A stretch of DNA of 64,000 nt, taken from contig JAUSNO010000004.1 in assembly GCA_030645915.1 (NCBI GenBank), forward strand, positions 5,269 to 69,268, given 5' to 3'. Position numbers and translations under genes: made by a program. Shown piece after piece: positions 2,407 to 23,239 of this stretch. Source of the stretch: Undibacterium sp. GTDB taxonomy: Bacteria > Pseudomonadota > Gammaproteobacteria > Burkholderiales > Burkholderiaceae_D. The notes under the pieces are model-generated. The model searched no databases. It was not told the origin of the DNA and saw only the letters and a list, made by a program, of their open reading frames with translations. The first letter of the stretch is position 1, and every line of letters starts with the position of its first letter.

Positions 2407-2483
2407 ATCACATAAAAGAATGCGCTTTATCTTAAAGAAGGAAAAATTTGACTTCAGCACATGATTGCCGTCACGCTGTCGCC

Positions 2484-3134
2484 ATGAGTACAAATCGAGA
2501 AATCAAAGACGCCCTGTTTGATCAAGTGGCGCGCATGGCCAAGGCCGTTGCCAGTCCAAAACGGCTAGAACTGCTTGACCTCTTGTGTCAGGCGCCCAAA
2601 TCCGTCGAGACGCTATCGCGTGAAACCGGCATCAGCGTCAAACTTGCCAGCGCCCACCTCAAAGAATTGCGCATCGCGCGCTTGGTGGCGACCGAACGGC
2701 AGGGTAAATATATTATTTATCGCATCGCCAGCCCCGAGGTGCCGCGCTTTTGGGTAACGCTGCGCACCCTGGCAGAAAGCCGCTTGTTTGAACTGCAAGA
2801 TGCGCTGCTTCAGCTATCGGCCTCAAGCAGTGAATGGCAGGGCGAAAGTCATGATGCGCTGTTGCGCCGCGCACGTGAGGGCGAGGTGGTGGTGATTGAT
2901 GTCAGGCCGGTCAGCGAATTCGAGCAGCAACATTTGCCATTCGCGCGCTCGATGCCACTGGCAGAATTGCGTGCCAGACTGGCGGAATTGCCTAAGGACA
3001 AACCTATCGTCGCCTATTGCCGGGGGCCGTATTGCCTGATGTCCGCCGATGCGGTGCGCCTCTTGCAGGAACAAGGTTTTACCGCATCGCAATTGCGTGA
3101 CGGCGTCAACGAGTGGGCAAGCATGGCTGGCTGA
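2484..3134 (+). CDS. ArsR/SmtB-family transcriptional regulator fused to a rhodanese domain
   Basis: Winged-helix segment (LELLDLLCQAPKSVETLSRETGISVKLASAHLKELRIARLV) followed by a rhodanese-like C-terminus (VIDVRPVSEFEQQHLP..., Cys loop AYCRGPYC). The start at MSTNREIK (2484) is preferred over the track start at 2448. Confidence 0.8.
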   Translation: MSTNREIKDALFDQVARMAKAVASPKRLELLDLLCQAPKSVETLSRETGISVKLASAHLKELRIARLVATERQGKYIIYRIASPEVPRFWVTLRTLAESRLFELQDALLQLSASSSEWQGESHDALLRRAREGEVVVIDVRPVSEFEQQHLPFARSMPLAELRARLAELPKDKPIVAYCRGPYCLMSADAVRLLQEQGFTASQLRDGVNEWASMAG

Positions 3135-3341: not shown

Positions 3342-4034
3342 TCAATGCCCGGGCGCGCTTCCCCACAGCTGCTTCACCCTGGCATCACGCCCGCAACTGC
3401 TGCGGTAATACTGGTAACGAATCGGATTTTTCTTGTAGTAATCCTGATGATATTCTTCGGCTGGATAAAAGGTGCCGGCCATCACGATCTCGGTGACGAC
3501 GGCTTCCTTGAACGGCTTGGTTTTTTCCAGCGCGGCGCGCGATGCGGTGGCGATCTTTAGCTGTTCTTCGTTCTGCGCAAAAATGGCGCTACGGTAGGGC
3601 GAACCATGGTCGCAGAACTGCTGATCCTTGACTGTCGGGTCTATGCTGCGCCAAAAATAATCGACCAGCTTTGCGTAGCTGACTTTGGCCGGATCGTAGA
3701 CGATCTGCACCGCTTCGGCGTGGCCCGTGGTGTGCGCCGATACTTGTTCGTAAGTGGGGTTGACGGTCTTGCCGCCGGTATATCCGGAGGTGGTCGAGAT
3801 GACGCCGGGCACCTTGTCGAAATCCGATTCAACGCACCAGAAGCAGCCGCCGGCAAACACCGCCTTGGCGGTGGCACCGCTTGATGTCGCAGGAACAGGC
3901 TGGGCGCTGGCTGCCGCCGCCAGGCTCAGCAAGATGCCGGCAGCGGCGGCATGCAGAACGCGCCTGAGCCAGCTCTGTGTTTGTCTTTGCGTTTGTCTTT
4001 GCTTATGCATTGTGCTATTCATTTTATTGGTCAT
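3342..4034 (-). CDS. msrA: peptide-methionine (S)-S-oxide reductase MsrA, with N-terminal export-like signal
   Basis: GGCFWCVESDF catalytic motif. The N-terminus carries a hydrophobic LLSLAAAASA segment. Confidence 0.9.
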   Translation of the reverse strand: MTNKMNSTMHKQRQTQRQTQSWLRRVLHAAAAGILLSLAAAASAQPVPATSSGATAKAVFAGGCFWCVESDFDKVPGVISTTSGYTGGKTVNPTYEQVSAHTTGHAEAVQIVYDPAKVSYAKLVDYFWRSIDPTVKDQQFCDHGSPYRSAIFAQNEEQLKIATASRAALEKTKPFKEAVVTEIVMAGTFYPAEEYHQDYYKKNPIRYQYYRSSCGRDARVKQLWGSAPGH

Positions 4035-4513
4035 GCTGCACTCACGAATTTAAGCGCAACACCATTGTTGCAAAAACGTTTGCCGGTCGGTGCCGGGCCA
4101 TCGTCAAACACGTGGCCCTGATGCCCTTCGCAGCGGGCGCAATGGTATTCGGTGCGCGGCAAGAACATCTTGAAGTCGGTTTTGGTCTGCACTGCGCCGG
4201 GCAAGGTGCTGAAAAAACTCGGCCAGCCGGTGCCGCTTTCGTACTTCATTTCCGAGCTGAACAAGGGCAGGTCACAGCCGGCGCAATGGTAGATGCCCTT
4301 GCGCTTTTCCAGGTTCAGGGGGCTGGTTTGCGCACGCTCTGTACCCTCCTTGCGCAGCACATCGTATTGCGCGGGCGTCAGACGTTTTTTCCATTCGGCA
4401 TCACTCAGGCGCAGCATTTCAATCCGCACCGGCAGCGCGGTATTGCCGGCGGCAAAAACAGGGCGAGCCAGAGCCAGGCTGCCTAACATGGTCAAGAGTT
4501 GTCGTCGGTTCAT
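4031..4513 (-). CDS. msrB: peptide-methionine (R)-S-oxide reductase MsrB, with twin-arginine-like signal
   Basis: Two CxxC pairs (CAGC, CARC), catalytic RFCNNG, and N-terminal MNRRQLLTMLGSLALARPVFA. Its stop overlaps the msrA start (4031-4034). Confidence 0.9.
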   Translation of the reverse strand: MNRRQLLTMLGSLALARPVFAAGNTALPVRIEMLRLSDAEWKKRLTPAQYDVLRKEGTERAQTSPLNLEKRKGIYHCAGCDLPLFSSEMKYESGTGWPSFFSTLPGAVQTKTDFKMFLPRTEYHCARCEGHQGHVFDDGPAPTGKRFCNNGVALKFVSAA

Positions 4514-4737
4514 GATATGACTTCCAGTAGTGGTTCATGTTGGTTTAGTCGTGCTCGCAGTGAAAACCTTACACATCAAAAAACTAAAGTCGCTGCGTTG
4601 TGGCATGACGATGCTGGCAGTCTAGCGCACATTCTGATTTTTGTTTTTTGGCCGGAATGCGGCAATTTGAAGTGGTGCTTGCGGGCGAAATACCGGCCAG
4701 CGTAGTGCAATGTGCGTTGATTTTTAAACTGCCACGC

Positions 4738-4808
4738 CCACCACGCAATACCGGTGCGGCTTTCCAGCCGATCTGGCCTGCAAGGCGCATGGGACATGCG
4801 TGACGGGC
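4738..4808. repeat. degenerate REP-like element (family A)
   Basis: CCCACCACGCAATACCGGTGCGGCTTTCCAGCC...CTGCAAGGCGCATGGGACATGCGTGACGGG shares the family loop (TTTCCAGCC..CTGGCCTGCA) but has a decayed stem. Confidence 0.45.
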
Positions 4809-4829
4809 TTGCCACTTTTTAGTTTTTCA

Positions 4830-5870
4830 TCAGCAGCAGCTGCCGCTTTGCCCTGCATCCTTACTAAACGGCAGTTCGCCGCCGCAGCCGGCGAACAGGC
4901 CGAAATGCCGGCTGAAGTCGCCGATGAAATCGAAGTGCTGGTGCAGGCGCGTATCGTGCAGCATGTGCCAAGTGTTGCCGCAGACCGGGAACACTCTGCC
5001 GGTCTGCATGTCGTGGTGCTTGTCGAGCACAAAGCTGTGGGCGTGACCGGGTACCGTGCCGCGATAAATCACGGCCTGGCCGAAGTCTTCGCAGTTGGGT
5101 TCCAGCGTATCGAGCTTGAACAGGCGATAGGTGGCCGAATAGAACTCGATGCCTTCGGCGCGCTCGGCCAGATTGGGATCGGTGATGACGATAGGCCGGT
5201 CTTCCACCAGGCGCGGATCGGCAAAGCCGTGGCGCTTGGCCAGATGCAGGAAATCGTTCCAGTACAGCGCGCCGCCCAGACATTCGCCGTACATCAGCGC
5301 GTCATTCCTGACGCGATCCGGCACGCGGCGGTCGGCGTAGATATCGGAAAAATACAGCTCGCCGCCCGGTTTCAGCAAGCGGAAAATCTCGCGCAATACG
5401 GCGTCCTTATCCGGCGACAGGTTCACCACGCAGTTCGACACCACCACGTCAAAACTGGCATCGGCCAGCTTCAGGTCGCTGAGGTTTTCTATGTAGCCGA
5501 GGCGGAACTCGACATTGCTGCTGACGTGGCCGAACTGTTCGCGGTGGTAGTCCTGATGGCGCAGCGCGACATCGAGCTGCTCTTGCGTCATGTCCACGCC
5601 CAGCACCGAGCCTTGCTCCCCCACCAGTTGCGCCAGCGCATACACGTCGCGCCCGCTGCCGCAGCCCAGATCGAGCACACGGCAGCCTTGCAGCAGCGGC
5701 GGGCAGACCAGGCCGCAGCCGTAATAACGTTCGGTCACTTCCGGATGGATCTTGCCCAGCAGGGCTTTCATCCAGGCCGGTATCGATGCAAAATCGCAGC
5801 AGGCGCTGGTCTGCAGATCGCTGCTGCTTTGCAGCTGGCGGCCGTAGTAATCCTTGACTATCTCATGCAT
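4830..5870 (-). CDS. arsM: AS3MT-type arsenite S-adenosylmethionine methyltransferase
   Basis: SAM motif VLDLGCGSGRD. Colinear AS3MT-like blocks: YYGCGLV, VVSNCVVNL, GGELYFSD, YGECLGGALYW, ATYRLFK. Cysteines fall at the positions of the As-binding Cys residues, and the C-terminus is ...SGSCC. Confidence 0.85.
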   Translation of the reverse strand: MHEIVKDYYGRQLQSSSDLQTSACCDFASIPAWMKALLGKIHPEVTERYYGCGLVCPPLLQGCRVLDLGCGSGRDVYALAQLVGEQGSVLGVDMTQEQLDVALRHQDYHREQFGHVSSNVEFRLGYIENLSDLKLADASFDVVVSNCVVNLSPDKDAVLREIFRLLKPGGELYFSDIYADRRVPDRVRNDALMYGECLGGALYWNDFLHLAKRHGFADPRLVEDRPIVITDPNLAERAEGIEFYSATYRLFKLDTLEPNCEDFGQAVIYRGTVPGHAHSFVLDKHHDMQTGRVFPVCGNTWHMLHDTRLHQHFDFIGDFSRHFGLFAGCGGELPFSKDAGQSGSCC

Positions 5871-5910
5871 GTTGGTCTCGATTCAAGAGGGTTTATATTC
5901 GGTACAGATA

Positions 5911-7044
5911 TTATCGGTGTGCGGCCAGGAAGCGCTGGTCGATGCGCTGCTTCCAGCGCCATACCCATTTGCCTTCAAAACCGACGATACCCCAGGAGGC
6001 CACGGCGTTTTCGTCACCGGTGCCGATCAGGGTTAAAAAGCGCCGTTGCGGACGATAGGGCAGCAGTGGTTCGCCGGCAAAGACCGCGCGCAGGTTATGC
6101 GCCAGGACCGGCCCCATTCTTACCGCAAACACGCCGGCCTTGGGCAGCGGGGTATCCCAGCTGGCGCAATCGCCCACGGCAAACACGTTGGGGTGCGAGA
6201 TCGAACGCAGCGTATGGTTGATGCGCACAAAGCCTGCCTTATCGACCAGCAAGGCCGAGGCACGCGGCCAGCGGTGCGCCTCGGCGGCAGTGGCCCAGAA
6301 CACACAATCAGCCTTCAGCGCCCGGCCGTCGTCTGCCAGCACGGCATCGCCTTCACAGCGTAGCGCCGAAAAATTACGCACAACATGAATCCCGCGCTGC
6401 GCCAGCCGCCGCTCCAGCCGGTGCGCAGCGATCGGCGCAATCCCGTTCAGGATTTCACTACCGGCGCCTGCCAGCGTAAAGCGCAATTGCACCTGCGGCG
6501 CCAGCACGCTCAACGCATGCTGCATGGCGAGAATACTTTCGACGCCGGCCGCCCCCGCCCCCACCATCAGCACGGCAAACTTGCTGCCGGGTGCCAGCTG
6601 CCTGACCTGATCCTGCAGATCCTGCCAGGGTTGCTGCAACTGATACAGCGGTCGTAACGGGATCAGCTTCAATCCGGCATGCGCGGGCGGTACCAGCGTG
6701 GGACCGATATTGAGCGAGATAAAATCGTAGTTGAGCACCGCGCCGCTGGCCAGCGTGACCTGACTGGCATCGGGGTCGATGGCGCTGACCGCCTCGAGCA
6801 GAAACTGCGCACCGGCGCGCCGGCAAAGCGAAGGAAAATCGATGCAGATGTCGTCCCAGCGGTAGTGCCCCGCCAGCCAGGCCGGCAACATGCCGGAACT
6901 GGGTACGCCGGGCGAGGGCGAGACCAGGATGATCTCGACTCCCGGCATCGGCATCTCGGCAATGCTGCGCAACACGCCCGCGTGCGCGTGGCCGGCGCCG
7001 ATCAGCAGCAGACGTCTTCTGCGGTGTGTCTGTTGATCCATCAT
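5911..7044 (-). CDS. FAD-dependent pyridine nucleotide-disulfide oxidoreductase (NDH-2-like)
   Basis: N-terminal LLLIGAGHAHAG dinucleotide fold, a second GxGxxG (VLMVGAGAAGVE), and a GDCA motif. Its start overlaps the upstream gene's stop (7041-7044). Confidence 0.75.
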   Translation of the reverse strand: MMDQQTHRRRRLLLIGAGHAHAGVLRSIAEMPMPGVEIILVSPSPGVPSSGMLPAWLAGHYRWDDICIDFPSLCRRAGAQFLLEAVSAIDPDASQVTLASGAVLNYDFISLNIGPTLVPPAHAGLKLIPLRPLYQLQQPWQDLQDQVRQLAPGSKFAVLMVGAGAAGVESILAMQHALSVLAPQVQLRFTLAGAGSEILNGIAPIAAHRLERRLAQRGIHVVRNFSALRCEGDAVLADDGRALKADCVFWATAAEAHRWPRASALLVDKAGFVRINHTLRSISHPNVFAVGDCASWDTPLPKAGVFAVRMGPVLAHNLRAVFAGEPLLPYRPQRRFLTLIGTGDENAVASWGIVGFEGKWVWRWKQRIDQRFLAAHR

Positions 7045-7658
7045 GCTGCCATCCAGTGTGCGGGCACATGCGGCAAATCGTGTGCCTCATCGATGTCAAA
7101 GAGTGGCGGCAATTCAACCACAGTTTCATTGAGTAGCGCCAGTCTTGCGCGGGTGTGCGCCATCACTTGCGGCGTGCTCCAGGGCATATCGTCAAACAGC
7201 GCCGGTAGGGCGCGTGACAAACCCACCAGTACGTAACCGCCGTCGTGCGTCGGCACAAAGCTGGCAGCGTGGGTTTGCAGGGCAGCGGCAGCCTGGTTCA
7301 GCTGCGCCGCCTGCAAGCCCGGCGCATCGGTGCCGATCAGCAACACGCGCCGGTGTTCTTGCAGGCTACGCTGCAGCGCGCGCCACATGCGCTGGCCCAG
7401 ATCGCCTTCGCCTTGCTCGCTGAGCGTCAGGCCGTACTGTTGTTGTTCACGGATGAACTGCGCATGCGTCGCGTCAGGTGCGCAGCATAATTCGACCGGG
7501 CCGATATTGGCGGCAACCGCCTGTGCCAGCGTTTCGCTCAGCATGCGCGCAGCCAGACTGGCCGCCGCGACATCGCCTATCACGCGCGCCAGGCGGGTCT
7601 TGGCAAACCCCGCCACGGGGGCCTTGGCAAACACAATGATCTTGCAGTCGTCTTTCAC
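7041..7658 (-). CDS. DUF2064 / TIGR04282-like (CofC-like) putative glycosyltransferase
   Basis: IIVFAKAPVAGFAKTRLARVIG N-terminus and a LLIGTDAP motif, both typical of DUF2064. Sits in the ArsS/ArsM context. Confidence 0.7.
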   Translation of the reverse strand: MKDDCKIIVFAKAPVAGFAKTRLARVIGDVAAASLAARMLSETLAQAVAANIGPVELCCAPDATHAQFIREQQQYGLTLSEQGEGDLGQRMWRALQRSLQEHRRVLLIGTDAPGLQAAQLNQAAAALQTHAASFVPTHDGGYVLVGLSRALPALFDDMPWSTPQVMAHTRARLALLNETVVELPPLFDIDEAHDLPHVPAHWMAA

Positions 7659-7682
7659 AAATTTTCTTTCACGAATTCTCTT

Positions 7683-8387
7683 TCACTTATATTTTTCCGC
7701 CAGCTTGTCGGCCGGTACACCCAGCCAATACAGCAAACGCAGGTGCCACATCAGGACGATGGTGCGCCAGACGCCTGCAGTGCTCCAGCGCCGGCCAGAA
7801 GTGCGGACTTTTTGCGCCAGGCACAGCGGCGCAGAACGTCGCTTCAGCCGCCGCGAGATTTCTATGTCTTCCATCAGCGCCTGCGCGGGGAAGCCGCCCA
7901 CGGCCACAAAATCCGCCCGCCGCACAAAGATCGCCTGATCGCCGGTCGCCATGCCTGTCAGGCGCGAGCGCCAGTTCATCATGGCGGCGATCAGTTTCAG
8001 CATTTTTTGTTCGCCTTCGATGATGACGTCAAACCGGCCCCAGGCTTTTGCCGATGTGGCCAGCCCCTGCAGGATCGCGTGATGCGCGCCCGGCGGCAAA
8101 CGCGTGTCAGCATGCAAAAACAAGATGGTATCGCCACCTGCCACTGCCGCACCGGCGTTCATCTGGCTGGCGCGGCCGCGCGCGGCCGTGATGACCCGAT
8201 CGACCAGCGGCAACGCCAGTTGCAGCGTCGCGTCGCTACTGCCGCCATCGACCAGGATGACTTCGGCACCCGCTGCGCGCATCGCTTGCAAATCACCCAG
8301 CGTGCCAACGATGGCGCCAGCTTCATTCAGCACCGGCACGATCACCGACAGCGTTGGCAATACATCGAGCGGTAGCCGCTCAGCCAC
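7683..8387 (-). CDS. family-2 glycosyltransferase (TIGR04283-like)
   Basis: LSVIVPVLNEA...ILVDGGSSD GT2 signature. Overlaps the downstream gene by 8 nt. Confidence 0.7.
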   Translation of the reverse strand: MAERLPLDVLPTLSVIVPVLNEAGAIVGTLGDLQAMRAAGAEVILVDGGSSDATLQLALPLVDRVITAARGRASQMNAGAAVAGGDTILFLHADTRLPPGAHHAILQGLATSAKAWGRFDVIIEGEQKMLKLIAAMMNWRSRLTGMATGDQAIFVRRADFVAVGGFPAQALMEDIEISRRLKRRSAPLCLAQKVRTSGRRWSTAGVWRTIVLMWHLRLLYWLGVPADKLAEKYK

Positions 8388-10527
8388 GGCGCCAATCCTG
8401 ATAGCGCGCTACCCAGGCCAGCAGCTTATGCGGCGTATGCGCCTTAGCCCAGACGCCTGCTGCATACTTGTTCGCCTCAGACATGGTCGGATAGGTGTGG
8501 ATGGTGCCAAGAATTTTTTTCAAGCCCAGGCCATGCTTCATCGCCAGCACGTATTCGGCCAGCAGATCGCCGGCATGTTCACCGACGATAGTCACGCCCA
8601 GAATCTTGTCGCTGCCCGCCGCAGTCAGCACCTTGATGAAGCCATGCGCTACATCGTCGGCAATCGCGCGGTCCAGCTCGTCCAGATCAAAACGGCTGAC
8701 CTCGACCGCGATGCCCCGTTCTTTGGCTTCGCTTTCAGACAAGCCCACGCGCGCCACTTCAGGATCGGTAAATGTGGTCCACGGTATCACGCGGTAATCG
8801 ACCTTGAAGCGCTTCAGGTTGCCGAACAGCGCGTTGACCGAGGCGTACCAGGCCTGATGCGCGGCGGTATGGGTGAACTGGAAAGGGCCGGCCACATCAC
8901 CGCAGGCCAGGATGTTGGGGTAATTGGTTTGCAGATACTCGTCCACGGCGATGGTTTTCTTGGGTGACAGCTGCACGCCGAGTTCTTCCAGCCCAAAGCC
9001 TTCGGTACGCGGGGCGCGGCCGACAGCGCACAGCAGGACATCAAACTCTATGGTTTTTTCCTGATCACCATGCTTGACGATCAGGCGCTTGCTGCCGTCC
9101 ACCAGTTCGCAGCGTACCGCCTGGTGCGAGGTCAGCAAGTCTATGCCATCGGCCAGCAAAGAGCGGCTGACCAGCTCGGACACTTCGGGGTCTTCGCGCA
9201 GCATGACGCGCGCCGCCATTTCCACCTGTGTGACCTTAGAGCCCAGGCGGGCAAAACTTTGCGCCAGTTCGCACCCTATCGGGCCACCGCCCAGCACCAC
9301 CAGCCGTGGCGGTAGCTGCGTCAAGCCCCAGATCGTGTCCGAGGTTTCATAGCCGACCAGATCCAGACCGGGGATGGGCGGTACAAAGGGACGCGCACCG
9401 GTAGCGATGACGATGCTGCGCGTACTCAGCACCTGCCGGCCTGCCGGCGTGGTGATTTCTACCGTCCATGGCGAAGTAATTTTTGCCTGCCCCTGCACGA
9501 CATCCACCCCCAACCCCGTATAGCGCTCGACCGAGTCATGCGGTTCTATGGCCGTGATGATTCGGTGCACGCGCTGCATCACCCTGGCAAAATCCACCTC
9601 GACGCTGGCGCCGGCCATGCCGTAGGTCGCGGCCAGGCTGTTTTGCTTGACGAACTTGGCCGAGCGAATCAAGGCCTTCGACGGCACGCAGCCAAAATTA
9701 AGACAGTCGCCACCCATCTTATGGCCTTCAACCAAAGTCACCTTGGCCTTGACGGTGGCGGCGATCAGGGAGGTGACCAGGCCGGCGGCACCGCCGCCGA
9801 TGACGATCAGATTACGGTCGAATTTTTTCGGCCTGTTCCAGCGCGCAACCACGCGCCGCGCCTTGAACCATAAAGTGATCTTGCGCGCGATGATGGGGAA
9901 CACGCCGAGCAAGACAAACGAGCCTATCAGCGGCAGCGACAGGATGCCGCGCAGACTGTCGATCTGGCCGAGCTGGGTGCCGGCATTCACATACACGACG
10001 GTGCCGGCCAGCATGCCGATCTGGCTGACCCAGAAATAAGTCCAGGTGCGGATCGCGGTCAGGCCCATGAGCAGATTGACCAGAAAGAACGGCGCCACCG
10101 GCACGATGCGCAACATGAATAAATAGAAGGCGCCCTCCTGTGCAATGCCGGCGTCAATCGCGCCCAGTCTGGCGCCAAATTTTTGCCTGACCCAGTCGCG
10201 CAACAGGTAGCGCGACGACAAAAATGCCAGCGTCGCCCCGATGGTTGAGGCGAATGAGACCAGCAGCGTGCCTACGGCTAATCCGAACAAGGCACCGCCG
10301 GCCAGCGTGACCACTGCCGCACCAGGAAAAGATAGTGCACACACCGTGACGTAAATGCCGAAATACAGCGCCATCGTCAGCAAGGGGTGCGCCGCATAAT
10401 ACGCGGCAAACGACTGCTGGCTGCTCTTGATAAACGCCAGGCTGGCATACTGCCCGAGATCAAGCCAGAAAAACGCAGCGATACCGGCAGCAAGAAGTGC
10501 CAGCAGCGCCAGCTTGCTACGCGTCAT
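8380..10527 (-). CDS. bifunctional TVP38/TMEM64 (DedA-like) membrane domain / FAD-dependent disulfide oxidoreductase
   Basis: N-terminal multi-TM SNARE-associated-type domain of about 230 aa, then IVIGGGAAG, a redox-active GGDCLNFGCVPSK motif, VVLGGGPIGCE, and a C-terminal dimerisation-type domain. The start at MTRSKLALL (10527) overlaps the arsS stop. Confidence 0.8.
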   Translation of the reverse strand: MTRSKLALLALLAAGIAAFFWLDLGQYASLAFIKSSQQSFAAYYAAHPLLTMALYFGIYVTVCALSFPGAAVVTLAGGALFGLAVGTLLVSFASTIGATLAFLSSRYLLRDWVRQKFGARLGAIDAGIAQEGAFYLFMLRIVPVAPFFLVNLLMGLTAIRTWTYFWVSQIGMLAGTVVYVNAGTQLGQIDSLRGILSLPLIGSFVLLGVFPIIARKITLWFKARRVVARWNRPKKFDRNLIVIGGGAAGLVTSLIAATVKAKVTLVEGHKMGGDCLNFGCVPSKALIRSAKFVKQNSLAATYGMAGASVEVDFARVMQRVHRIITAIEPHDSVERYTGLGVDVVQGQAKITSPWTVEITTPAGRQVLSTRSIVIATGARPFVPPIPGLDLVGYETSDTIWGLTQLPPRLVVLGGGPIGCELAQSFARLGSKVTQVEMAARVMLREDPEVSELVSRSLLADGIDLLTSHQAVRCELVDGSKRLIVKHGDQEKTIEFDVLLCAVGRAPRTEGFGLEELGVQLSPKKTIAVDEYLQTNYPNILACGDVAGPFQFTHTAAHQAWYASVNALFGNLKRFKVDYRVIPWTTFTDPEVARVGLSESEAKERGIAVEVSRFDLDELDRAIADDVAHGFIKVLTAAGSDKILGVTIVGEHAGDLLAEYVLAMKHGLGLKKILGTIHTYPTMSEANKYAAGVWAKAHTPHKLLAWVARYQDWRRG

Positions 10528-11498
10528 GCTGCAGCCTTGGCGCCGGGCGCGAGTGCGCCGCCGCAACTGCTGCCTTGCCCTGCGGTGCAGCCATAACAAT
10601 GATCGGCGATGGCGATGGCGCGGCCGTCAAGATGCTGACCCGGCAGATCGCGCAGATGCGCCCTTGGCGTATTCTCCAGCCGCATCGGCATGCCCAGCAT
10701 CTGGTTGAAATCGCAATCGTAAAGATAACCCTGATGGTCCACGCTGACCATGCTCTTGCACATCAGGCCAGCCATATTCTCTTGCTTGAAATTATCCTTG
10801 AGCAGCGTCATGTAGTCGGCAAACTTGCCCTTGGAAATGAGCGTGCTGCCAAAGCGCTGGATCGGCATGTTTGCCAGCGCAAACAGTTGCGTGAAGCTGA
10901 TACCGAAATGCTTGGCCAGTTCGCGCTTGTAATCGAGTTCCAGTTTTTCCTGATCGGGCGGCAGCGTTGCCCCCAGCGGGTTATACACCAGGTTTAATGG
11001 CTTGCTGGCGCCGTAGCCCAGCGCATTGAGTTTTTGCAGGCCCGCGATGCTTTTGTCGAACACGCCGTCACCACGTTGCTTGTCGACGTTTTCCTGTGAA
11101 TAGCAGGGCATCGATGCCGTCACCTCGACACCCTGCCCGGCCAGAAACTCGGCCAGATCCTCCTGGCCCGGCTCAAACAAAATGGTCAGATTGCAGCGGT
11201 CGATCACGCGTACGCCAAGCTCACGCGCCTCGGTCACCAGCCGTCTGAAATGCTGGTTCAGTTCCGGCGCGCCACCGGTCAGATCGAGCGTGCTCAGGCC
11301 GCATTCGTGCAACACCTTGATCACCAGGTCGACGGTCTCGCCATCCATCATCTCGGTGCGGGTAGGCCCGGCGTTGACGTGGCAATGCTGGCAAGTCTGG
11401 TTGCATTGATAGCCCAGGTTCACCTGCAGGGTGTCGAATTGTATGCGCCTGACGGGCGGAAAATCAGTCTTGCGCAGTAGCGGATAAGTGGCGTGCAT
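10524..11498 (-). CDS. arsS: radical SAM / Cys-rich domain protein, ArsS-like (TIGR04167-type)
   Basis: CNQTCQHC radical-SAM cluster motif near the N-terminus. Cys-rich C-terminal tail DHCYGCTAGQGSSCGG. Co-located with arsM and the two glycosyltransferase-like genes. Confidence 0.8.
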   Translation of the reverse strand: MHATYPLLRKTDFPPVRRIQFDTLQVNLGYQCNQTCQHCHVNAGPTRTEMMDGETVDLVIKVLHECGLSTLDLTGGAPELNQHFRRLVTEARELGVRVIDRCNLTILFEPGQEDLAEFLAGQGVEVTASMPCYSQENVDKQRGDGVFDKSIAGLQKLNALGYGASKPLNLVYNPLGATLPPDQEKLELDYKRELAKHFGISFTQLFALANMPIQRFGSTLISKGKFADYMTLLKDNFKQENMAGLMCKSMVSVDHQGYLYDCDFNQMLGMPMRLENTPRAHLRDLPGQHLDGRAIAIADHCYGCTAGQGSSCGGALAPGAKAAA

Positions 11499-11592
11499 GG
11501 CGTTTTTTGCTTTATATGGATAGATTAATGACGATAATGGCGACGAGTCGGACCATGAGTCGGAGCAAGCCCGGTGTTCCTTACACTATGCG

Positions 11593-12438
11593 TTAACTTT
11601 TCAGTACCGCCAGCCAGTGTTTTTGCCCATCGCTCAGCGCATTTTCATCGCACATCATGGCGTGCGACAAGGCGTTGCGAATCTCGGCCTCTTCGGGCGG
11701 CAAGGCATCACTGAGCATCTGTTGCAGCAATGCGCGCACCTTGTCCAGGCTCTGGCGGTACAGCGTAAAGATGGCATCCACCTGGACGTGCTGGCTAGGG
11801 TCTTCCATCCAGCAGTCATAATCGGTGGCGACACCTATCGTCGCATAGCAGATCTGCGCCTCGCGCGCCAGAAACGCTTCCGGCACATTGGTCATGCCAA
11901 CCAGATCGCAACCGGCCTGACGCAAGAAATGGCTCTCGGCGCGGGTGCCAAGACGCGGCCCTTCGACGCAGCCATACGTGGCGGCACGATGAATCCGCAG
12001 ATTAAGCTTGTTGGCATGCGACATAATCCAGCCGACCAGATTGGCGCTGACCGGGTTCGCGGTGGAGACATGCGCCGCTACGCCGCCACCAAAAAAACTC
12101 GCCTCGCGCCGACCACGGGTCCAGTCAAAATACTGCTCAGGCAAGGCCAGATCACCGGGCGCGATCTGTTCGCGCAGGCTACCGACGGCAGACACCCCGA
12201 TGATCTGCGTCGCGCCCAGTTGCTTGAGTGCATAAATGTTGGCGCGGTAATTGATCTCATGCGGCAACTGCTGATGCCCGGCGCCGTGGCGCGACAAGAA
12301 CAAGACTTCGTGCACGCCCAGTTTGCCCTTGAGTACCGGGCCGGAAGGGATACCAAACGGGGTGCTGCAGGCGATGGTGTCGAGCAGCTCCAGGCCGTCC
12401 ATCTGGTACACGCCGGTTCCACCTATGATTGCTAGCAT
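11593..12438 (-). CDS. MTAP-family purine nucleoside phosphorylase (5'-substituted adenosine phosphorylase)
   Basis: MLAIIGGTGVY N-terminus, LSRHG, and a GMTNVPEA block, typical of S-methyl-5'-thioadenosine phosphorylases. Confidence 0.85.
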   Translation of the reverse strand: MLAIIGGTGVYQMDGLELLDTIACSTPFGIPSGPVLKGKLGVHEVLFLSRHGAGHQQLPHEINYRANIYALKQLGATQIIGVSAVGSLREQIAPGDLALPEQYFDWTRGRREASFFGGGVAAHVSTANPVSANLVGWIMSHANKLNLRIHRAATYGCVEGPRLGTRAESHFLRQAGCDLVGMTNVPEAFLAREAQICYATIGVATDYDCWMEDPSQHVQVDAIFTLYRQSLDKVRALLQQMLSDALPPEEAEIRNALSHAMMCDENALSDGQKHWLAVLKS

Positions 12439-12538
12439 TGTTATTTTTCCTTCCGATATTGACTTGTACAGGCGTGAATATTACGTCAATTATCGTAAAA
12501 AGACTTTCTGCGCGATGTTTGCGCATGGCGGCAGAATT

Positions 12539-13267
12539 TTATGGCGTTGCGGCCTTAAGCGGGGGCAAAAACTCGATATCGCCAAACCATGCGGTGACGC
12601 TCTCTCCCGTGTTGTCGGTATCGCTGGCCAGCGCCACCGCCACGACATCAGGCGCCTCTTCGCCAAAGGCGAGACGGAAATCGGCGGTAAGGTCGCGCGT
12701 CTCTGTCACCCACAGTCCTGATTTTTCGGCCCCGCTTTGCAGCACCATCATACGCGCGCGGTCGGTATAGGTATTGGCTTGCAAGCTGCCAACCGGGTGC
12801 CGGTTATCCCAGACATAATTCAACGCGGCGGTAGGTATCTTCTGCGCATAAAATTTCTCGGCCAGCTGCAACTTGATGCGTGTGCCCAGGGACAATTTAT
12901 CTGCCGGATAGTCAAACATCACATAGATGCGCGCGGCATAATCATCGCCCGATTTTTTCGTCATGTCGGCGCTCTTGACGGGGCCGGCAATCTTCCAGCG
13001 CCAGCGCAACAAGGGCGTCTGCCGCAGATCGACACGCAGCGGGTGAATCAGCCCGGACATGGAATTTTTCGCCTCGGCCATCAGCACTACCTTGCCGTTG
13101 TCAGCGACCAGCCGGTACTGCGTGTCGGCCGCTTTGAGCGCCTGCCATCCAGTCACAGCGCCATCCGGCCGCATCTGCGAAAATGCGGGCACCACAGCCG
13201 TCGCTGCAATGGCGCTGCTCATCACCAAGGGCAACATGGCGATGGCAAATCGGACTGGCGTTTTCAT
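12539..13267 (-). CDS. exported DUF3047 domain protein
   Basis: The ATG at 13267 gives MKTPVRFAIAMLPLVMSSAIAATA (signal-like). LLRWRWKI and DDYAARIYVMFDY blocks are remembered as DUF3047 signatures. The track start at 13294 is a TTG. Confidence 0.6.
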   Translation of the reverse strand: MKTPVRFAIAMLPLVMSSAIAATAVVPAFSQMRPDGAVTGWQALKAADTQYRLVADNGKVVLMAEAKNSMSGLIHPLRVDLRQTPLLRWRWKIAGPVKSADMTKKSGDDYAARIYVMFDYPADKLSLGTRIKLQLAEKFYAQKIPTAALNYVWDNRHPVGSLQANTYTDRARMMVLQSGAEKSGLWVTETRDLTADFRLAFGEEAPDVVAVALASDTDNTGESVTAWFGDIEFLPPLKAATP

Positions 13268-13387
13268 AGGCAGGAAACACGGTTGATTAAACAAGATGAC
13301 ATTAGACCTGAGATTTCGGCCTAGGGCTCGTTAGCGAGTTGGCAGCGCAGAACGATTTTTTTGAAAAAAGGCACCACTGAATACCAA

Positions 13388-13441
13388 GCAAAATCGCCGC
13401 AAGACCAAGGATGTTCGTCCTCAGGCTTGCGGCGATTTTGC
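13388..13441 (-). terminator. perfect 16-bp stem hairpin downstream of proQ-like gene (possible terminator)
   Basis: GCAAAATCGCCGCAAG (13388-13403) pairs perfectly with CTTGCGGCGATTTTGC (13426-13441) around a 22-nt loop. No clean U-tract follows immediately on the minus strand. Confidence 0.4.
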
Positions 13442-13448
13442 TCTACCC

Positions 13449-13484
13449 GGCAGACACGCTTAACGGCAGACACGCTTAACGGCA
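13449..13484. repeat. 16-bp tandem repeat at the 3' end of the proQ-like gene
   Basis: GGCAGACACGCTTAAC at 13449-13464 and 13465-13480, then a partial GGCA. It ends 1 nt before the proQ-like stop codon. Confidence 0.7.
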
Positions 13485-13485
13485 A

Positions 13486-13953
13486 TCAGCCCTTGCGGGA
13501 AAATTTGCTCGCAAGCTGCTGCATTTTTTCTGCGGTCTGGCGTGCGGCCTCTTCTGCCGCTTTTACCGCCAGCGCCGCTTCTTCCAGGGCACGCTGTGCC
13601 TTGCGCTGATCGGCTACTTTCTTGGCGCGTTCGCGCAATACCGTGGTGGCGTGCGCGCGATGCAGATCAGTGACTTCTTCTGCCGCATTGCCCTCTAAAT
13701 CCACACGGTTCTTGGCTTTCTCCATGATCTTCAGGTAGCGCAGGGAATTGGTGTGTATGCCCAGAGCCACGCGCAAGGTCTTGCGGCTGACTTCGGGATA
13801 CAGGGCAAAGAGTTGCTTGTCGATACCGATCGTCAGTGGCATGTATTCACGGAAAGCGACGAACTTTTCTTGCAGATCTTTAAGCAAAGCGCGTGCTGGC
13901 TGACTTGGGCTGGGCGCGACGCTTGGGCTTGGACTAGTACTAGGCGTATTCAT
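13486..13953 (-). CDS. ProQ/FinO-domain RNA-binding protein
   Basis: LQEKFVAFREYMPLTIGIDKQLFALYPEVSRKTLRVALGIHTNSLRYLK matches the ProQ/FinO N-terminal domain pattern. The tail is Lys/Ala-rich. Confidence 0.7.
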   Translation of the reverse strand: MNTPSTSPSPSVAPSPSQPARALLKDLQEKFVAFREYMPLTIGIDKQLFALYPEVSRKTLRVALGIHTNSLRYLKIMEKAKNRVDLEGNAAEEVTDLHRAHATTVLRERAKKVADQRKAQRALEEAALAVKAAEEAARQTAEKMQQLASKFSRKG

Positions 13954-14120
13954 TGACGATAAATGGTTATTTTGTGTATCAGGTGGGGGAGAATATCACG
14001 GAGTCCTGTCACTGATACGTTTTTGCGCTGATTTAGCTTTCTGGAACGTGGCTTTTCTCACGCAAACTGCATATTTTTTATAGCCGTTTCAGCCACCATG
14101 CCACCTACCTGATCCAAGGG

Positions 14121-14207
14121 CCGCCCAGGGCATGCCCTGTCACGCAACTCCCATGCGGCTTTCCAGCCTGCCTGGCCTGCAGGGCGCATGGGGGTTGCGT
14201 GCTGGCG
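14121..14207. repeat. REP-like element (family A)
   Basis: ...GTCACGCAACTCCCATGCGGCTTTCCAGCCTGCCTGGCCTGCAGGGCGCATGGGGGTTGCGTGCTGG... Confidence 0.7.
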
Positions 14208-14288
14208 GCATCGTTTTTTGATTCTATGGCAGACATGAGCCGGGAAAGCACTGATGCCATCCTTACACCGGCTGTGATACGCTAAACC

Positions 14289-15815
14289 ATGATGAAGCTT
14301 TCCACCCCTGCACGTTCAACTGGCCAATCGGCCAGACAATGGCTATTGCTGGCCGTGCTGCTAGGCACAGCGACCGTTCTCGCCTATTGGCTTGACCCTT
14401 ATGTGTCGCTCACCAGTCAGGCCATGTTGTATGTGCTGGCCGTGGTGATCGCCTCATATACCTTGGGTTGGATCAAATCGGTGTTCTGTGCACTCGGTGC
14501 AGTGATGGCATTGAATTTCTTTTTTGTGCCGCCGCGCTTTACTTTTCAGGTGGAACGTTCGGAGCATTTTATTGCGCTGTTGACGATGCTGGTGGTGGCG
14601 CTGGTGATCAACCGGCTGGCGACCGGTTTGCGCCGCGAGACCGAGGCCGCACATCTGAACGAACGCCGCGCGCGCCAGTTGCAGGATCTGGCCATCGCGC
14701 TGGCCAATGCGCATACGGCGCAAGAAGTGCTGGCGCTGGCGCAGCGCGCGCTGGATGCGGAATTTACCGGCCCCTGCCTGGTGGCCCTGAATACCTCTGG
14801 CGATGAACTTGATCTCAAGACGGATCTGCCCACCGCTGTCAAAGATGGCCTGCGCTGCTGCATGAAAGAGGCGCGTGTGCTGGGGCCGGGTACCGAGCGC
14901 TGGCCGGGGCTGGATGCCTGGTATCTGCCGCTGGGCGAACAAGGCCAGATCTGTGGCGCGGTGTATATCCCTGCCGTTGCGGCAGATGACGAGAATGGCC
15001 GCGAACATGCGCGCGCATTGTGTACGATACTGGCGCAAGCCTTGTGGCGCTTGCGCCTGACCTCGTCGATGCTGGAGGCACAGGGCGAGGCGCAACGCCA
15101 GCAATTGCAAGCCATATTTTTAGCCGCGATCTCGCATGATTTGCGCACGCCGCTGGCGGTGGTGGTCGGTGCCGCGTCTGCCCTGCAAACCCAGCGCGCC
15201 AAGCTCGATCTGACCGAGCAGGATCGCCTGCTTGCCAGCATCGTCAGCGAGGCCAATTACCTCACCACGGTGACAGAAAATACCCTGCAACTGGTGCGCC
15301 TCTCTAACTCATCACAATTAATTCAACATGACTGGGAGTCGATAGAGGAAATCGTCGGCGCAGTGCTGGCAAGAGTGCGCCAGCGTGATCCTGGCCGGCG
15401 CATTATTTCCCAAGTCCCCAGCGACTTGCCGCTGGTCAAAGTTGACCCGGTATTGATCGCGCAATTGCTCGCCAATCTGCTCGATAACGCGCTGAAGTAC
15501 AGCGATGACAAGATTGACCTGACGGTCGATAGCGTGACGAACGGTTCTGAGCGGCAATTGCAAGTGTCCATCAAAGACAGAGGCCCCGGCATACCGAAGG
15601 CCGAACAACTGAGCATTTTTGCCGCGTATTCCAGACTGGATCACAACGACCAGTCCAGCCAGCGCGGTGCAGGTCTGGGCCTGGCGGTTTGCCGCGCCAT
15701 CGCCCTGGCGCATGGCGGCAGCCTGGTCTTGCAGCAGCGCGCTGGCGGTGGCAGCAGCTTTACGCTGAGCTTGCCGGTCGATCCAAAGCAGCCGCAAGCC
15801 CTGGGAGCAGCTTGA
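14289..15815 (+). CDS. KdpD-like sensor histidine kinase lacking the N-terminal KdpD/Usp module (DUF4118-GAF-like-HisKA-HATPase)
   Basis: The membrane block ...FFFVPPRFTF... is paralogous to kdpD (FFFVPPRFSF at 23955..26738). H-box AISHDLRTPL, and a G-box GAGLGLAVCRAIALAHGG. Confidence 0.85.
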   Translation: MMKLSTPARSTGQSARQWLLLAVLLGTATVLAYWLDPYVSLTSQAMLYVLAVVIASYTLGWIKSVFCALGAVMALNFFFVPPRFTFQVERSEHFIALLTMLVVALVINRLATGLRRETEAAHLNERRARQLQDLAIALANAHTAQEVLALAQRALDAEFTGPCLVALNTSGDELDLKTDLPTAVKDGLRCCMKEARVLGPGTERWPGLDAWYLPLGEQGQICGAVYIPAVAADDENGREHARALCTILAQALWRLRLTSSMLEAQGEAQRQQLQAIFLAAISHDLRTPLAVVVGAASALQTQRAKLDLTEQDRLLASIVSEANYLTTVTENTLQLVRLSNSSQLIQHDWESIEEIVGAVLARVRQRDPGRRIISQVPSDLPLVKVDPVLIAQLLANLLDNALKYSDDKIDLTVDSVTNGSERQLQVSIKDRGPGIPKAEQLSIFAAYSRLDHNDQSSQRGAGLGLAVCRAIALAHGGSLVLQQRAGGGSSFTLSLPVDPKQPQALGAA

Positions 15816-16498
15816 TGAACATGCGCGTTCTGGTGGTGGAAGATGACAAGGAGATCCGTGCCTTCATCCGCTCATCCTTGTCGATAGAGGGTTATGAAGT
15901 GCAGACGGCAGTCTCCATCAGCGAAGCCAGGGCGATGTTGCAGCAGGCGTTACCCGACGTGATGGTGCTGGATCTGGGTTTGCCCGATGGCGACGGCATA
16001 GAGCTGGTGCGCGAAGTGCGCAAGCAGCATAACCTGCCGATCCTGATCGTCTCGGCCAGGCATCAGGAGGCGCAAAAAATCCTCCTGCTCGATGCCGGTG
16101 CCGATGATTTCCTGAGCAAGCCCTTTAGCGTAGGCGAGTTGCTGGCGCGCATACGCGTCGCCTTGCGGCACCGTGGCACTAGCTTGGCGGCAGCAGTCAC
16201 CGAATATGTGCTGGACGATTTGCGCATCGATCTGGCCTCGCACGTAGTGCAATGCCGCGGCGAAGTGCTGCACCTGACGCCGACCGAATTCAAGCTGCTG
16301 GCCAGGCTGGTACGCAGCGCCGGGCGCGTAGTCACGCACAGGCAATTGCTGAGCGATGTCTGGGGCAATGAGTTCATCGACCACACCCATTATCTGCGTC
16401 TTTACATGGCGCAATTGCGCGCCAAGATAGAAGAGAATCCGGCCGAGCCGCGCTATCTGCTGACCGAGACCGGGGTCGGTTATCGGCTGGCTATTTGA
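15815..16498 (+). CDS. OmpR-family response regulator, KdpE paralogue
   Basis: MNMRVLVVEDD..., VLDLGLPDGDG receiver, and a C-terminal HLTPTEFKLL...YLLTETGVGYRL, near-identical in pattern to kdpE. The ATG overlaps the kinase stop (TGATG at 15813-15817). Confidence 0.9.
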   Translation: MNMRVLVVEDDKEIRAFIRSSLSIEGYEVQTAVSISEARAMLQQALPDVMVLDLGLPDGDGIELVREVRKQHNLPILIVSARHQEAQKILLLDAGADDFLSKPFSVGELLARIRVALRHRGTSLAAAVTEYVLDDLRIDLASHVVQCRGEVLHLTPTEFKLLARLVRSAGRVVTHRQLLSDVWGNEFIDHTHYLRLYMAQLRAKIEENPAEPRYLLTETGVGYRLAI

Positions 16499-16532
16499 TT
16501 TGTTTTGCGCTCTTTTTTTGAATCAAAAAACT

Positions 16533-16620
16533 GTCCACGAAAAACACGAAAGACACGAAAAAAACCAAGAATAAACGAATGGTTTTGACTTCTTTCGTGC
16601 CTTTCGTGTTTTTCGTGGAC
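16533..16620. repeat. CACGAAA fold-back element (family B)
   Basis: GTCCACGAAAAACACGAAAGACACGAAA (16533-16560) is inverted against TTTCGTGCCTTTCGTGTTTTTCGTGGAC (16593-16620). Lies between the response regulator and kup. Confidence 0.8.
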
Positions 16621-16740
16621 AAAAGCATTGAATGTTTGAGCAACAAAACCCACCATCATTAGTACAAATAAATTTATCCATATGCGTTCCTAATACCGTT
16701 AGCGGGATAGTGGCATCCTGTTCATTAAGATTAGGTTGAT

Positions 16741-18618
16741 ATGAGTAAAATTTCTCAGCGCGAAAGCGTCGCGGCACTCACTCTGGGTGCCCTGGGCGTG
16801 GTGTATGGCGACATCGGCACCAGCCCCCTGTACACCATGAAAGAAGTGTTTGGCCATGCCACCGGCATACCCTTGGATGCCAGCCATTTGATCGGCGCGG
16901 TGTCGGTGATTTTTTGGGGACTGATGATGGTCGTCACCCTGAAATATGTGGTGCTGATCTTGCGTGCCGATAACCGCGGCGAAGGCGGCATCATGGCTTT
17001 GACCGCACTGGCCGCCAAGGCCGCCGGCAAAACCCCGCACAGCCGCGTGCTGTTGCTGCTGACCGGCGTATTCGGCGCGGCGCTTTTTTACGGTGACAGC
17101 GTGATCACTCCCGCCATCTCGGTACTCAGCGCGGTGGAAGGCCTGGAGGTCGCTTCGCTTACCTTCAAGCCCTATGTATTGCCGATTTCTATCGCTGTGT
17201 TGATTGGCCTGTTTGCCTTTCAGCGTTTTGGTACCGGTCTGGTGGGCAAATTGTTCGGGCCCGTTATCGTGCTGTGGTTTGCGGTGCTGGCTGTCACAGG
17301 CATGCTTGAAATCATCCAGCAGCCTGCCATTTTGGCGGCGCTCAACCCGCTCAATGCCATCCGTTTTCTGACCTCGCAAGGCTGGCACGTGTTTGTCGTA
17401 GTCGGCGCGATTGTGCTGGCGTTTACCGGTGCCGAGGCTTTGTATGCCGACATGGGCCACTTCGGCAAGCGCCCGATACAGCTAGCCTGGGCCGGGCTGG
17501 TATTGCCGTCGCTCGCCATCCACTATATGGGGCAAGGTGCGCTGTTGATGCGTGATCCGTCGGCCATCGAGAATCCGTTTTACCACATGTTCCCGACCAG
17601 CTTGCTGATCCCTGCGGTGATGCTGGCCACGCTCGCGACCGTGATCGCCTCACAGGCAGTGATCTCCGGCGCATATTCGATGACCAAGCAAGCCATGCAA
17701 CTGGGCTTGTTGCCGCGCATGCAGGTACATTTCACTTCCGCCAAAGAGATGGGCCAGATCTACATGCCCGGAGTCAACTGGGTGCTGCTCGCCGGCGTGT
17801 TATTGGCGGTGCTGGGGTTTGGCAGCTCTTCCGCGATGGCTGCGGCCTATGGTATTGCCGTGACGGTGACCATGCTGATCACCACCATACTCACCTTCTT
17901 CGTCATCCGCAGCGCATGGAAATACCCTCTATGGCTGGCGCTCGCCGCCACCGGAGTATTTTTGCTGCTGGACTTGCTGCTGGTGGTGTCGTGTTCGATC
18001 AAATTCTTTCAGGGCGGCTGGTTTCCGCTGGCGCTGGGCGGCCTGATCTTCATCGTGATGGCAACCTGGCGCCGTGGCCGCGAGCTGTTGATCAATAACA
18101 TCCGCCAGGATGACCCTGAGCTGCTGCCTTTCATCGCCGCTTTATCAAGCGATGACATGCACCGCGCCTCACGCACCGCGATCTACGCAGTGGCAAACCC
18201 GGATACCGTGCCGCAAGCCCTGATGCACAACCTCAAGCACAATCAGGTACTGCATGAGCGCAATATCATCCTCACCGTGGTGTTTCACGATGTGCCATGG
18301 GTGCCATTTGCAGAGCGCCTGCAAGTCGAATCGCTGGTGCCGGGTTTCTGGAAAGTGAAGATCAATTACGGCTTCAAAAACACGCCGGATATCCCCAAGG
18401 CGCTGGAGCTATGCGAGGCGCAAGGCTTGCCGATCAACCTGTTCGAGACTTCGTATTTCCTCAGCCGGGAAATCGTGGTGCCGACCAAAGGCACCGGCAT
18501 GGCGCACTGGAGAGAAGTCATGTTCGCCCTCATGTCGCGCAACTCGGGCAGCGTGGCAAACTTCTTCAAGCTGCCGAATAACTGCGTGATTGAACTGGGT
18601 ACGCGGGTACAGATTTAA
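16741..18618 (+). CDS. kup: KUP/HAK/KT potassium uptake transporter
   Basis: [21 protein letters not shown]-terminal signature, about 12 TM segments, and a cytoplasmic C-terminal domain. Confidence 0.95.
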
Positions 18619-18640
18619 GCTTCCAGATTTCAAAAAGCAC

Positions 18641-19008: not shown

Positions 19009-19053
19009 GGCTTTTGCCTATTATTCTCAGTGTAAAAAACCAATGGGGAAATC

Positions 19054-21055: not shown

Positions 21056-21070
21056 GTTTAAGGAAATGAT

Positions 21071-23239
<2,169 letters not shown>

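Follow-up and report, generated by a model that had tools for sequence, protein, structure and literature searches.

A probable biosynthetic operon for an arsenosugar-type compound, centred on ArsS, in a freshwater Undibacterium

In the 64,000-nt stretch of Undibacterium sp. DNA studied here (the window; GCA_030645915.1, contig JAUSNO010000004.1, positions 5,269 to 69,268 of the forward strand), eight minus-strand open reading frames (ORFs) at 4830-13267 include the genes of the radical S-adenosylmethionine (SAM) enzyme ArsS and of an ArsM-type methyltransferase. It is reasonably likely that these genes form a biosynthetic operon for a dimethylarsinoyl-riboside, an arsenosugar-type compound, that is probably directed to the membrane or envelope. 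In transcription order they encode an exported DUF3047 protein, an MTAP-like phosphorylase, ArsS, a VTT/DedA membrane domain fused to a flavoprotein disulfide reductase (VTT-reductase), a GT2 glycosyltransferase, a DUF2064 protein, a TIGR03169 flavoprotein and the methyltransferase, and every one of the ORFs is backed by protein-family matches (Pfam, NCBIfam/TIGR models). The original prediction, made from the sequence alone, had described eight tightly packed minus-strand genes, and both the coordinates and the family matches agree with it. The three start/stop overlaps that it listed (10524-10527, 8380-8387 and 7041-7044) are all present: we read ATGA at the ArsS/VTT-reductase junction (10527-10524), GTGGCTGA at the VTT-reductase/GT2 junction (8387-8380) and again ATGA at the DUF2064/TIGR03169 junction (7044-7041), while GT2 and DUF2064 are spaced by 24 nt. 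Among the members of a known gene neighbourhood that databases already catalogue, the locus is particularly complete; it is no new kind of system. The host is Undibacterium (Oxalobacteraceae, Burkholderiales), a freshwater betaproteobacterium; its GT2 has a 100% identical counterpart at NCBI in an Undibacterium sp. metagenome-assembled genome (MAG), which bears out the heterotrophic betaproteobacterium that had been proposed as host.

ArsS (10524..11498, minus strand) scores 452.7 bits against the equivalog model TIGR04167 (cut-off 300), has the C32-x3-C36-x2-C39 motif (C32NQTC36QHC39) and ends in a cysteine-rich DUF3641 domain (PF12345 at 186 bits). Its C-terminal segment HCYGCTAGQGSSCGGAL and the radical SAM motif are kept across 77 homologues. 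By sequence and by analogy, it would be a 5'-deoxyadenosyl transferase acting on dimethylarsenite (DMAs(III)), the activity known for the Synechocystis enzyme, which is reported to adenosylate DMAs(III) to 5'-deoxy-5'-dimethylarsinoyl-adenosine (DDMAA). The methyltransferase (4830..5870, minus strand) is, from its sequence, a clear homologue of AS3MT/ArsM and thus a putative As(III) SAM methyltransferase. It matches the solved structures of this group, as it aligns over residues 4-335 (three domains, including the C-terminal one) with the Chlamydomonas ArsM 5EVJ at 353 bits (E 2e-104) and reaches 306 bits with CmArsM and 267 bits with human AS3MT. The SAM-binding motif VLDLGCGSG was found, and C24, C52, C147 and C197, which are invariant in the lineage, align with cysteines of CmArsM and CrArsM. 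The cluster-type ArsM lineage has further invariant cysteines (C260, C297, GC329G and the terminal C345-C346), and this part of the protein (residues 260-346) may serve as a metalloid hand-off arm.

The cyanobacterial (Synechocystis) arsenosugar pathway, reportedly described by Xue et al. 2019 and Cheng et al. 2021, involves ArsM and ArsS. The window resembles it in its equivalog-level ArsS, with the same radical SAM motif and DUF3641 domain, and in having an AS3MT-type ArsM in the same transcription unit. It differs from it in several respects: the host is a heterotrophic betaproteobacterium, the ArsM belongs to another lineage (96.6 vs 400 on the AsSugarArsM model) and is encoded five genes from ArsS, and six to eight further genes are co-encoded. 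The original prediction had granted experimental roles to ArsM and ArsS only, and the literature searched likewise gave experiments on these two alone. To our knowledge, they are the only enzymes characterised for the arsenosugar pathway, and in cyanobacteria alone; we know of no enzyme that has been identified for the way from DDMAA to arsenosugars or arsenosugar phospholipids since the pathway was proposed in the 1980s.

The partners of ArsS were studied in 80 ArsS-anchored loci from species-representative genomes of beta- and gammaproteobacteria (60-74% ArsS identity) by tblastn and de novo ORF clustering. Neighbours were counted in 77 ArsS loci including the window, many of them incomplete at their ends. 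GT2 and DUF2064 each occur near ArsS in 51 of the 77, DUF2064 mostly directly after GT2, and the VTT-reductase fusion (median length 725 aa) occurs in 43. The TIGR03169 flavoprotein and an ArsM-like gene were each found in 17 loci, the latter from two different lineages, followed by DUF3047 (16 loci) and the MTAP-like gene (11 loci, in 7 of them on the same strand and in 6 of these directly upstream of ArsS: the window, L001, L009, L014, L016 and L058; the same arrangement is found in Massilia putida, L082). The conserved core of the neighbourhood is therefore ArsS, GT2, DUF2064 and the VTT-reductase, and DUF3047, the MTAP-like gene, TIGR03169 and ArsM are recurrent but variable accessories. 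Hence, of the eight genes that had been treated as one set, four stand as such and the other four come and go. Similarly, the expected synteny holds for the core, which is syntenic in dozens of genomes, but all eight genes are contiguous only in the window and in its close relative L081, a 333-kb ENA contig whose ArsS (P0001) is 97% identical to that of the window and which has the same eight genes between the same flanks; for the ArsS of the window itself, an exact look-up gave no record. Massilia putida has seven of the eight, together with an ECF (extracytoplasmic function) sigma/anti-sigma factor and a PiT/PHO4 transporter. The second ArsM lineage adjoining ArsS terminates in Cys-Cys, as the window-type lineage does.

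The association was also seen with the methyltransferase as the anchor. In this set of 80 metagenome loci, the 38 with at least 6 kb upstream were counted, and ArsS, GT2 and DUF2064 lie upstream of the window-type ArsM in 23 of them; the other neighbours are the fusion (21), DUF3047 (11), PHO4 (9), TIGR03169 (7) and the MTAP-like gene (5). Because 23 of the 38 long loci carry ArsS, this ArsM lineage is mostly dedicated to ArsS clusters, which ties arsenic methylation to the gene set. Together with the model scores, synteny thus supports the earlier reading of an ArsS/ArsM-centred operon with radical SAM-associated transferase families. In the databases, TIGR04282 and TIGR04283 are named 'arsenosugar biosynthesis glycosyltransferase' at NCBI and 'rSAM/selenodomain-associated transferase' at JGI. 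As in the 'rSAM/selenodomain-associated' neighbourhood of NCBIfam/TIGRFAMs, the window has adjacent genes above the cut-offs of TIGR04167, TIGR04282 and TIGR04283; unlike in that neighbourhood, the MTAP-like gene, DUF3047, TIGR03169, ArsM and probably exported MsrB and MsrA are added in a single operon.

Experiments on homologues in other organisms suggest how the proposed pathway would begin: As(III) would be methylated to dimethylarsenite by the ArsM-type methyltransferase, and ArsS would join the 5'-deoxyadenosyl group of SAM to dimethylarsenite, yielding DDMAA. Because DDMAA is a 5'-substituted adenosine and thereby a structural analogue of methylthioadenosine, we infer that the MTAP-like enzyme could cleave it phosphorolytically to adenine and 5-deoxy-5-dimethylarsinoyl-alpha-ribose-1-phosphate. 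The DUF2064/TIGR04282 protein, as a nucleotidyltransferase, would turn this arsenoribose-1-phosphate into a nucleoside diphosphate (NDP) sugar, and the inverting GT2 would move the arsenoribosyl group to a glycerol-type acceptor, maybe phosphatidylglycerol or a different membrane-surface lipid, to give a beta-riboside. Natural arsenosugars have a beta-riboside linkage, which fits inverting transfer from a donor derived from an alpha-1-phosphate, and arsenosugar phospholipids are in effect arsenoribosylated phosphatidylglycerol. More speculatively, the VTT/DedA domain might shift the lipid-linked product across the membrane, the fused disulfide reductase and the NDH-2-like flavoprotein might hold arsenic or thiols in the redox state needed, and exported DUF3047, DUF547 and MsrB/MsrA might have periplasmic roles, with the product or the envelope as their target. 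The pathway is supported by the recurrence of the ArsS-GT2-DUF2064-(VTT-reductase) core in beta- and gammaproteobacteria, by the translational coupling of the genes and the linkage of ArsM to ArsS in two separate lineages, and by the PiT/PHO4 phosphate transporter that follows ArsM in metagenome loci and in Massilia. The MTAP-like gene, on the same strand as ArsS and with a predicted active site that is intact save for the F177L/S178G change, also appears to fit it.

The MTAP-like purine nucleoside phosphorylase (PNP_UDP_1; 11593..12438, minus strand) falls just under the cut-off of TIGR01694 (272.5 vs 274.85), exceeds that of NF006599, the related MTIP phosphorylase model (228.4 vs 223), and matches solved MTAPs at 185-225 bits. 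It retains the catalytic, phosphate- and adenine-binding residues T18, R60, H61, T93/A94, M196, T197, D220 and D222 (human numbering). Two positions differ in this lineage, with Leu in place of Phe177 and Gly in place of Ser178 (same numbering); they lie close to the pocket for the 5'-substituent and the base, and the rest of the active site is canonical. As a clue to specificity, this pocket change in the sequence is suggestive only. Like the MTAP of methionine salvage, the window protein keeps the fold and the residues that bind phosphate, ribose and adenine; unlike it, the protein scores just below TIGR01694, has F177L/S178G and is encoded upstream of ArsS, apart from salvage genes.

The DUF2064 protein (7041..7658, minus strand) is well above the TIGR04282 cut-off (193.8 vs 134). 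It carries the conserved motifs P-x-x-G-x-x-KTRL, GTD-x-P and DGGY, it matches PDB 3CGX, and below threshold it matches CofC (50.5 bits, cut-off 105) and NTP_transf_3 (25.2 bits). Because of the G-x-x-KTRL and DGGY motifs and the sub-threshold matches, it is read as probably a CofC/MobA-like nucleotidyltransferase, despite its database name of glycosyltransferase. The original prediction had called this gene both CofC-like and glycosyltransferase-like; the former resemblance stands, whereas the nucleotidyltransferase motifs speak against the latter label. The arrangement recalls the CofC/FbiD + CofD pair and pairs of a sugar-1-phosphate nucleotidyltransferase with a GT2, where a nucleotidyltransferase-like gene of the GT-A clan adjoins a transferase, although unlike CofC/FbiD the window protein scores only 50.5 vs 105 on the CofC model.

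GT2 (7683..8387, minus strand) belongs to TIGR04283 (270.9 vs 182). Since PDB sequence searches with GT2 and with DUF3047 gave no match, the structures of both were predicted with AlphaFold2 (AF2). The GT2 model has a mean predicted local distance difference test score (pLDDT) of 94.3 and a GT-A fold, and a fold search places WrtF, PcManGT, ArnC and TarP as the nearest solved structures, of which ArnC and PcManGT are lipid-phosphate transferases. The GT-A catalytic set is complete, with D47/D52, H92-A93-D94 and E173-D174 invariant, and amphipathic helices rich in W, R and L occupy the C-terminal part (199-233). The exported DUF3047 protein (12539..13267, minus strand, with an alternative TTG start at 13294) matches PF11249 at 249 bits. 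An N-terminal signal peptide was read from its sequence, and residues 1-21 have low pLDDT. In its AF2 model (pLDDT 86.7) the protein folds as a jelly roll of the beta-sandwich type, whose weak fold matches hint at carbohydrate binding but identify nothing.

The fused protein (8380..10527, minus strand; VTT_dom, Pyr_redox_2, Pyr_redox_dim) joins the VTT/DedA membrane domain to a class I flavoprotein disulfide reductase whose CxxxxC redox centre GGDCLNFGCVPSK and H-x-YPT-x-x-E motif are kept in 45 homologues. It stays below the cut-offs for MerA, LpdA and GR. Like MerA, it is a class I flavoprotein with a CxxxxC centre and it reaches 394.3 bits on the MerA model TIGR02053 (cut-off 454.45); unlike MerA, it has neither a C-terminal Cys pair nor NmerA, and its N-terminus is the VTT membrane domain instead. 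An identification as MerA was rejected on the score and the missing Cys pair. The COG0398 DedA proteins have been described as a putative phospholipid-scramblase subfamily whose commonest fusion is that of VTT with a pyridine nucleotide-disulfide oxidoreductase, with no function given (PMC10127716). The domain architecture of the window protein is identical to these DedA/TVP38-reductase fusions, and in contrast to that paper, which gives no genomic context, an ArsS-cluster context is found here in 43 of the 77 loci. In L081 the gene calls place the VTT domain (238 aa) and the reductase (445 aa) in separate genes 95 nt apart (10972-13120), unlike in the window and 43 other loci, where they are a single ORF; this could be a frameshift, an assembly error or a genuine split.

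The second flavoprotein (5911..7044, minus strand) belongs to TIGR03169, the 'N-terminal to SelD' family (376.7 vs 310), and its best solved relatives are NDH-2 (YjlD), SQR and FSP1. No cysteine is conserved among its 17 cluster-linked homologues, and it was therefore rejected as a disulfide reductase. The two reductases of the original prediction thus fared differently: the fusion does have a disulfide-reductase centre of the CxxxxC type, but the other enzyme resembles NDH-2, SQR and FSP1.

The 5' boundary of the operon is supported by a strong hairpin (13386..13443, minus strand) directly after the upstream ProQ-like gene, with a folding energy of -44.5 kcal/mol (z = -6.5; 0 of 200 shuffles fold as well). 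An Rfam scan of 4400-14300 with E up to 1 gave no riboswitch or other RNA family, and a scan for sigma-70 promoters gave one site on the wrong strand, fewer than chance expectation. The 3' boundary may lie beyond the methyltransferase. An exported MsrB with a Tat-type (twin-arginine translocation) signal (4031..4513, minus strand; TIGR00357 157 vs 113) lies on the same strand 316 nt past it and is followed by an exported MsrA (3342..4034, minus strand; TIGR00401 198 vs 108) with a 4-nt overlap, and both are possible accessories. The 316 nt that separate the methyltransferase stop (4830) from msrB (4513) were scanned and gave no terminator-like site. An msrB-msrA pair is also located directly upstream of ArsS in a Hydrogenophilales MAG (L011, 1176-2278) and in a metagenome contig (L110, 3-760). 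The pair is probably part of the same functional neighbourhood as the ArsS operon. Because it is on the same strand, no terminator-like site intervenes and it recurs beside ArsS, the operon may comprise ten genes, with periplasmic Msr as a functional partner.

Several recurrent partners of ArsS are absent from the window, namely a 342-aa protein and an exported DUF547 protein (15 loci each), an ECF sigma factor (12) and an SSS-like transporter (7). The 342-aa protein ('c7') lies directly after ArsS in its 15 loci (e.g. L033, 10956-11984) and has no Pfam or NCBIfam match; a metallophosphoesterase is suggested by sequence motifs such as GDFHW, GNVE and VHGD. No locus has it alongside a same-strand MTAP-like gene (about 8 loci), but with a rough chance estimate of about 0.18 this is not significant, and no claim is therefore made of the 342-aa protein as an MTAP substitute. 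Exported DUF547 proteins occur in ArsS clusters of 15 genome and 14 metagenome loci (e.g. L034, 15559-16398). An ECF sigma gene lies just upstream of ArsS or of the MTAP-like gene in 12 of L001-L080, and none is found near the window cluster; in Massilia (L082) it is located at 3795-4594 with a zf-HC2 anti-sigma factor. The PiT/PHO4 transporter, also absent from the window, directly follows the window-type ArsM in 16 of the 80 metagenome loci (L086-L165), in L009 (8622-9716), in L012 and in L082 (11863-12933), and ArsM-PHO4 pairs occur without ArsS too. PiT carriers take up arsenate.

Several observations weigh against an arsenosugar-type pathway encoded by this operon. About 60 of the 77 ArsS loci are without ArsM within 10 kb, and the MTAP-like gene is present in only about one in seven, so that elsewhere a housekeeping enzyme would have to serve. 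The family models that had been proposed as a check gave a divided answer: TIGR04167, TIGR04282 and TIGR04283 are above their cut-offs, but the methyltransferase is below every NCBIfam ArsM cut-off (NF008823 176.9 vs 263, NF040538 141 vs 500, NF038099 96.6 vs 400). The fold matches of GT2 are generic GT-A and point to no donor or acceptor, those of DUF3047 are weak (template modelling score 0.45-0.5, to CBM, lectin, GH12 and FAP20 jelly rolls), and DUF3047 is also found outside ArsS clusters in genomes. There is no ars resistance gene or arsenic-responsive regulator near the cluster. The original prediction had remarked on the missing arsB, acr3, arsC and arsH, and this holds because no ArsB, Acr3, ArsC or ArsH was found in the window, searched as ORFs of at least 100 aa against Pfam (21-64 kb) and through the called genes of the near-identical L081 (0.5-21.5 kb); nor is any ars resistance gene recurrent among the 77 ArsS loci. 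In the literature searched, we found no test of any step after ArsS (DDMAA) and no arsenosugar production by a heterotrophic proteobacterium.

Alternatively, the core (the ArsS homologue, VTT-reductase, GT2 and DUF2064) could be an ECF-controlled module for envelope redox stress or lipid modification, to which arsenic methylation is an occasional add-on and whose product may be metalloid-free or a redox-cycling As(III)/As(V)=O compound regenerated by the reductases. We consider this unlikely. It would account for the ECF sigma factor upstream of ArsS in 12 loci and the zf-HC2 anti-sigma factor that Massilia adds, for exported MsrB/MsrA adjacent in three lineages, for two flavoprotein reductases and for exported DUF3047 and DUF547 as recurrent partners. 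However, ArsS is an equivalog-level match to an enzyme shown to adenosylate DMAs(III), the linkage of ArsM and ArsS is strong when the methyltransferase is the anchor, and no data suggest another substrate. To a similar degree improbable is that the chemistry is the same and acts physiologically on selenium or some other soft metalloid (leading to a Se-riboside or similar), arsenic being a substrate only in vitro or on the side. The names in the databases would favour selenium, as TIGR03169 is the flavoprotein family 'N-terminal to SelD', the ArsS family is named '(seleno)protein' and its partners are 'rSAM/selenodomain-associated' at JGI, and so would the scarcity of nearby ArsM and the lack of linked ars genes. 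Yet the methyltransferase is close to solved As(III) methyltransferases and keeps the arsenic-binding cysteines, two ArsM lineages have been recruited independently, the window-type ArsM is found mostly within ArsS clusters, and experiments show ArsS acting on DMAs(III). Moreover, no selD, selA or selB was found in the window by the same search of ORFs and of the called genes of L081.

That ArsM and ArsS detoxify arsenic in a mixed neighbourhood, where the other genes are unrelated housekeeping neighbours, seems very improbable to us. The accessory genes do differ between loci, DUF3047 occurs elsewhere in genomes and the MTAP-like active site is canonical, but the start/stop overlaps couple the genes, their co-localisation recurs across bacterial orders with the gene order shuffled, and the curated family models are defined by exactly such context. 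A biosynthetic operon for a dimethylarsinoyl-riboside remains the reading that we prefer.

The flanks shared by the window and L081 consist on one side of a kdp-type sensor kinase with a response regulator, kup and a ProQ-like gene, and on the other of msrB, msrA, an ArsR/SmtB-rhodanese regulator, DsrE and a fatty-acid hydroxylase. The regulator (2448-3134, plus strand), an ArsR/SmtB protein fused to a rhodanese domain with a DsrE-like gene next downstream, is the sole ArsR-family protein near the cluster, and it looks like a sulfur/persulfide sensor rather than an arsenic sensor. The remaining window contains kdpC/D/E, a cluster for reductive pyrimidine catabolism, fatty-acid and CoA enzymes, and peptidases. 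At 14289-27472, two sensor kinases, each paired with a response regulator, flank kup and kdpFABC: upstream a DUF4118-type kinase of 508 aa and its regulator, downstream full-length KdpD/KdpE; this doubling of potassium-related signalling genes is unusual. The pyrimidine cluster (31842-40024) comprises a PreT/PreA-like dihydropyrimidine dehydrogenase pair, a hydantoinase-type amidohydrolase, an M20 amidohydrolase, a permease of the cytosine/uracil family and a divergent TetR regulator of the RutR/YcdC type.

It seems that the partner genes of ArsS are good candidates for the steps by which the arsenic-adenosine intermediate would become an arsenic sugar or lipid. Side by side, a phosphorylase, a nucleotidyltransferase and an inverting glycosyltransferase make up a plausible full enzyme set, and as it is co-encoded also in culturable relatives such as Massilia putida, the steps after ArsS are directly testable. 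The results also supply a genomic context for the commonest domain fusion of the DedA (COG0398) proteins. Heterotrophic bacteria starved of phosphate have been reported to contain arsenic in their lipids (PMC7533571). The distribution of the clusters suggests that arsenosugar-type chemistry is widespread among non-photosynthetic Proteobacteria. A bolder idea, which we hold to be possible but rather doubtful, is that heterotrophic Proteobacteria of fresh water and soil make an arsenosugar lipid or a redox-cycling arsenical on purpose for their envelope, the operon being a complete route from DDMAA to the beta-riboside with a DedA flippase-reductase and periplasmic partners (DUF3047, MsrBA), coupled to PiT and ECF genes in relatives. 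If true, arsenic would here serve to spare phosphate or to protect against stress, rather than being detoxified.

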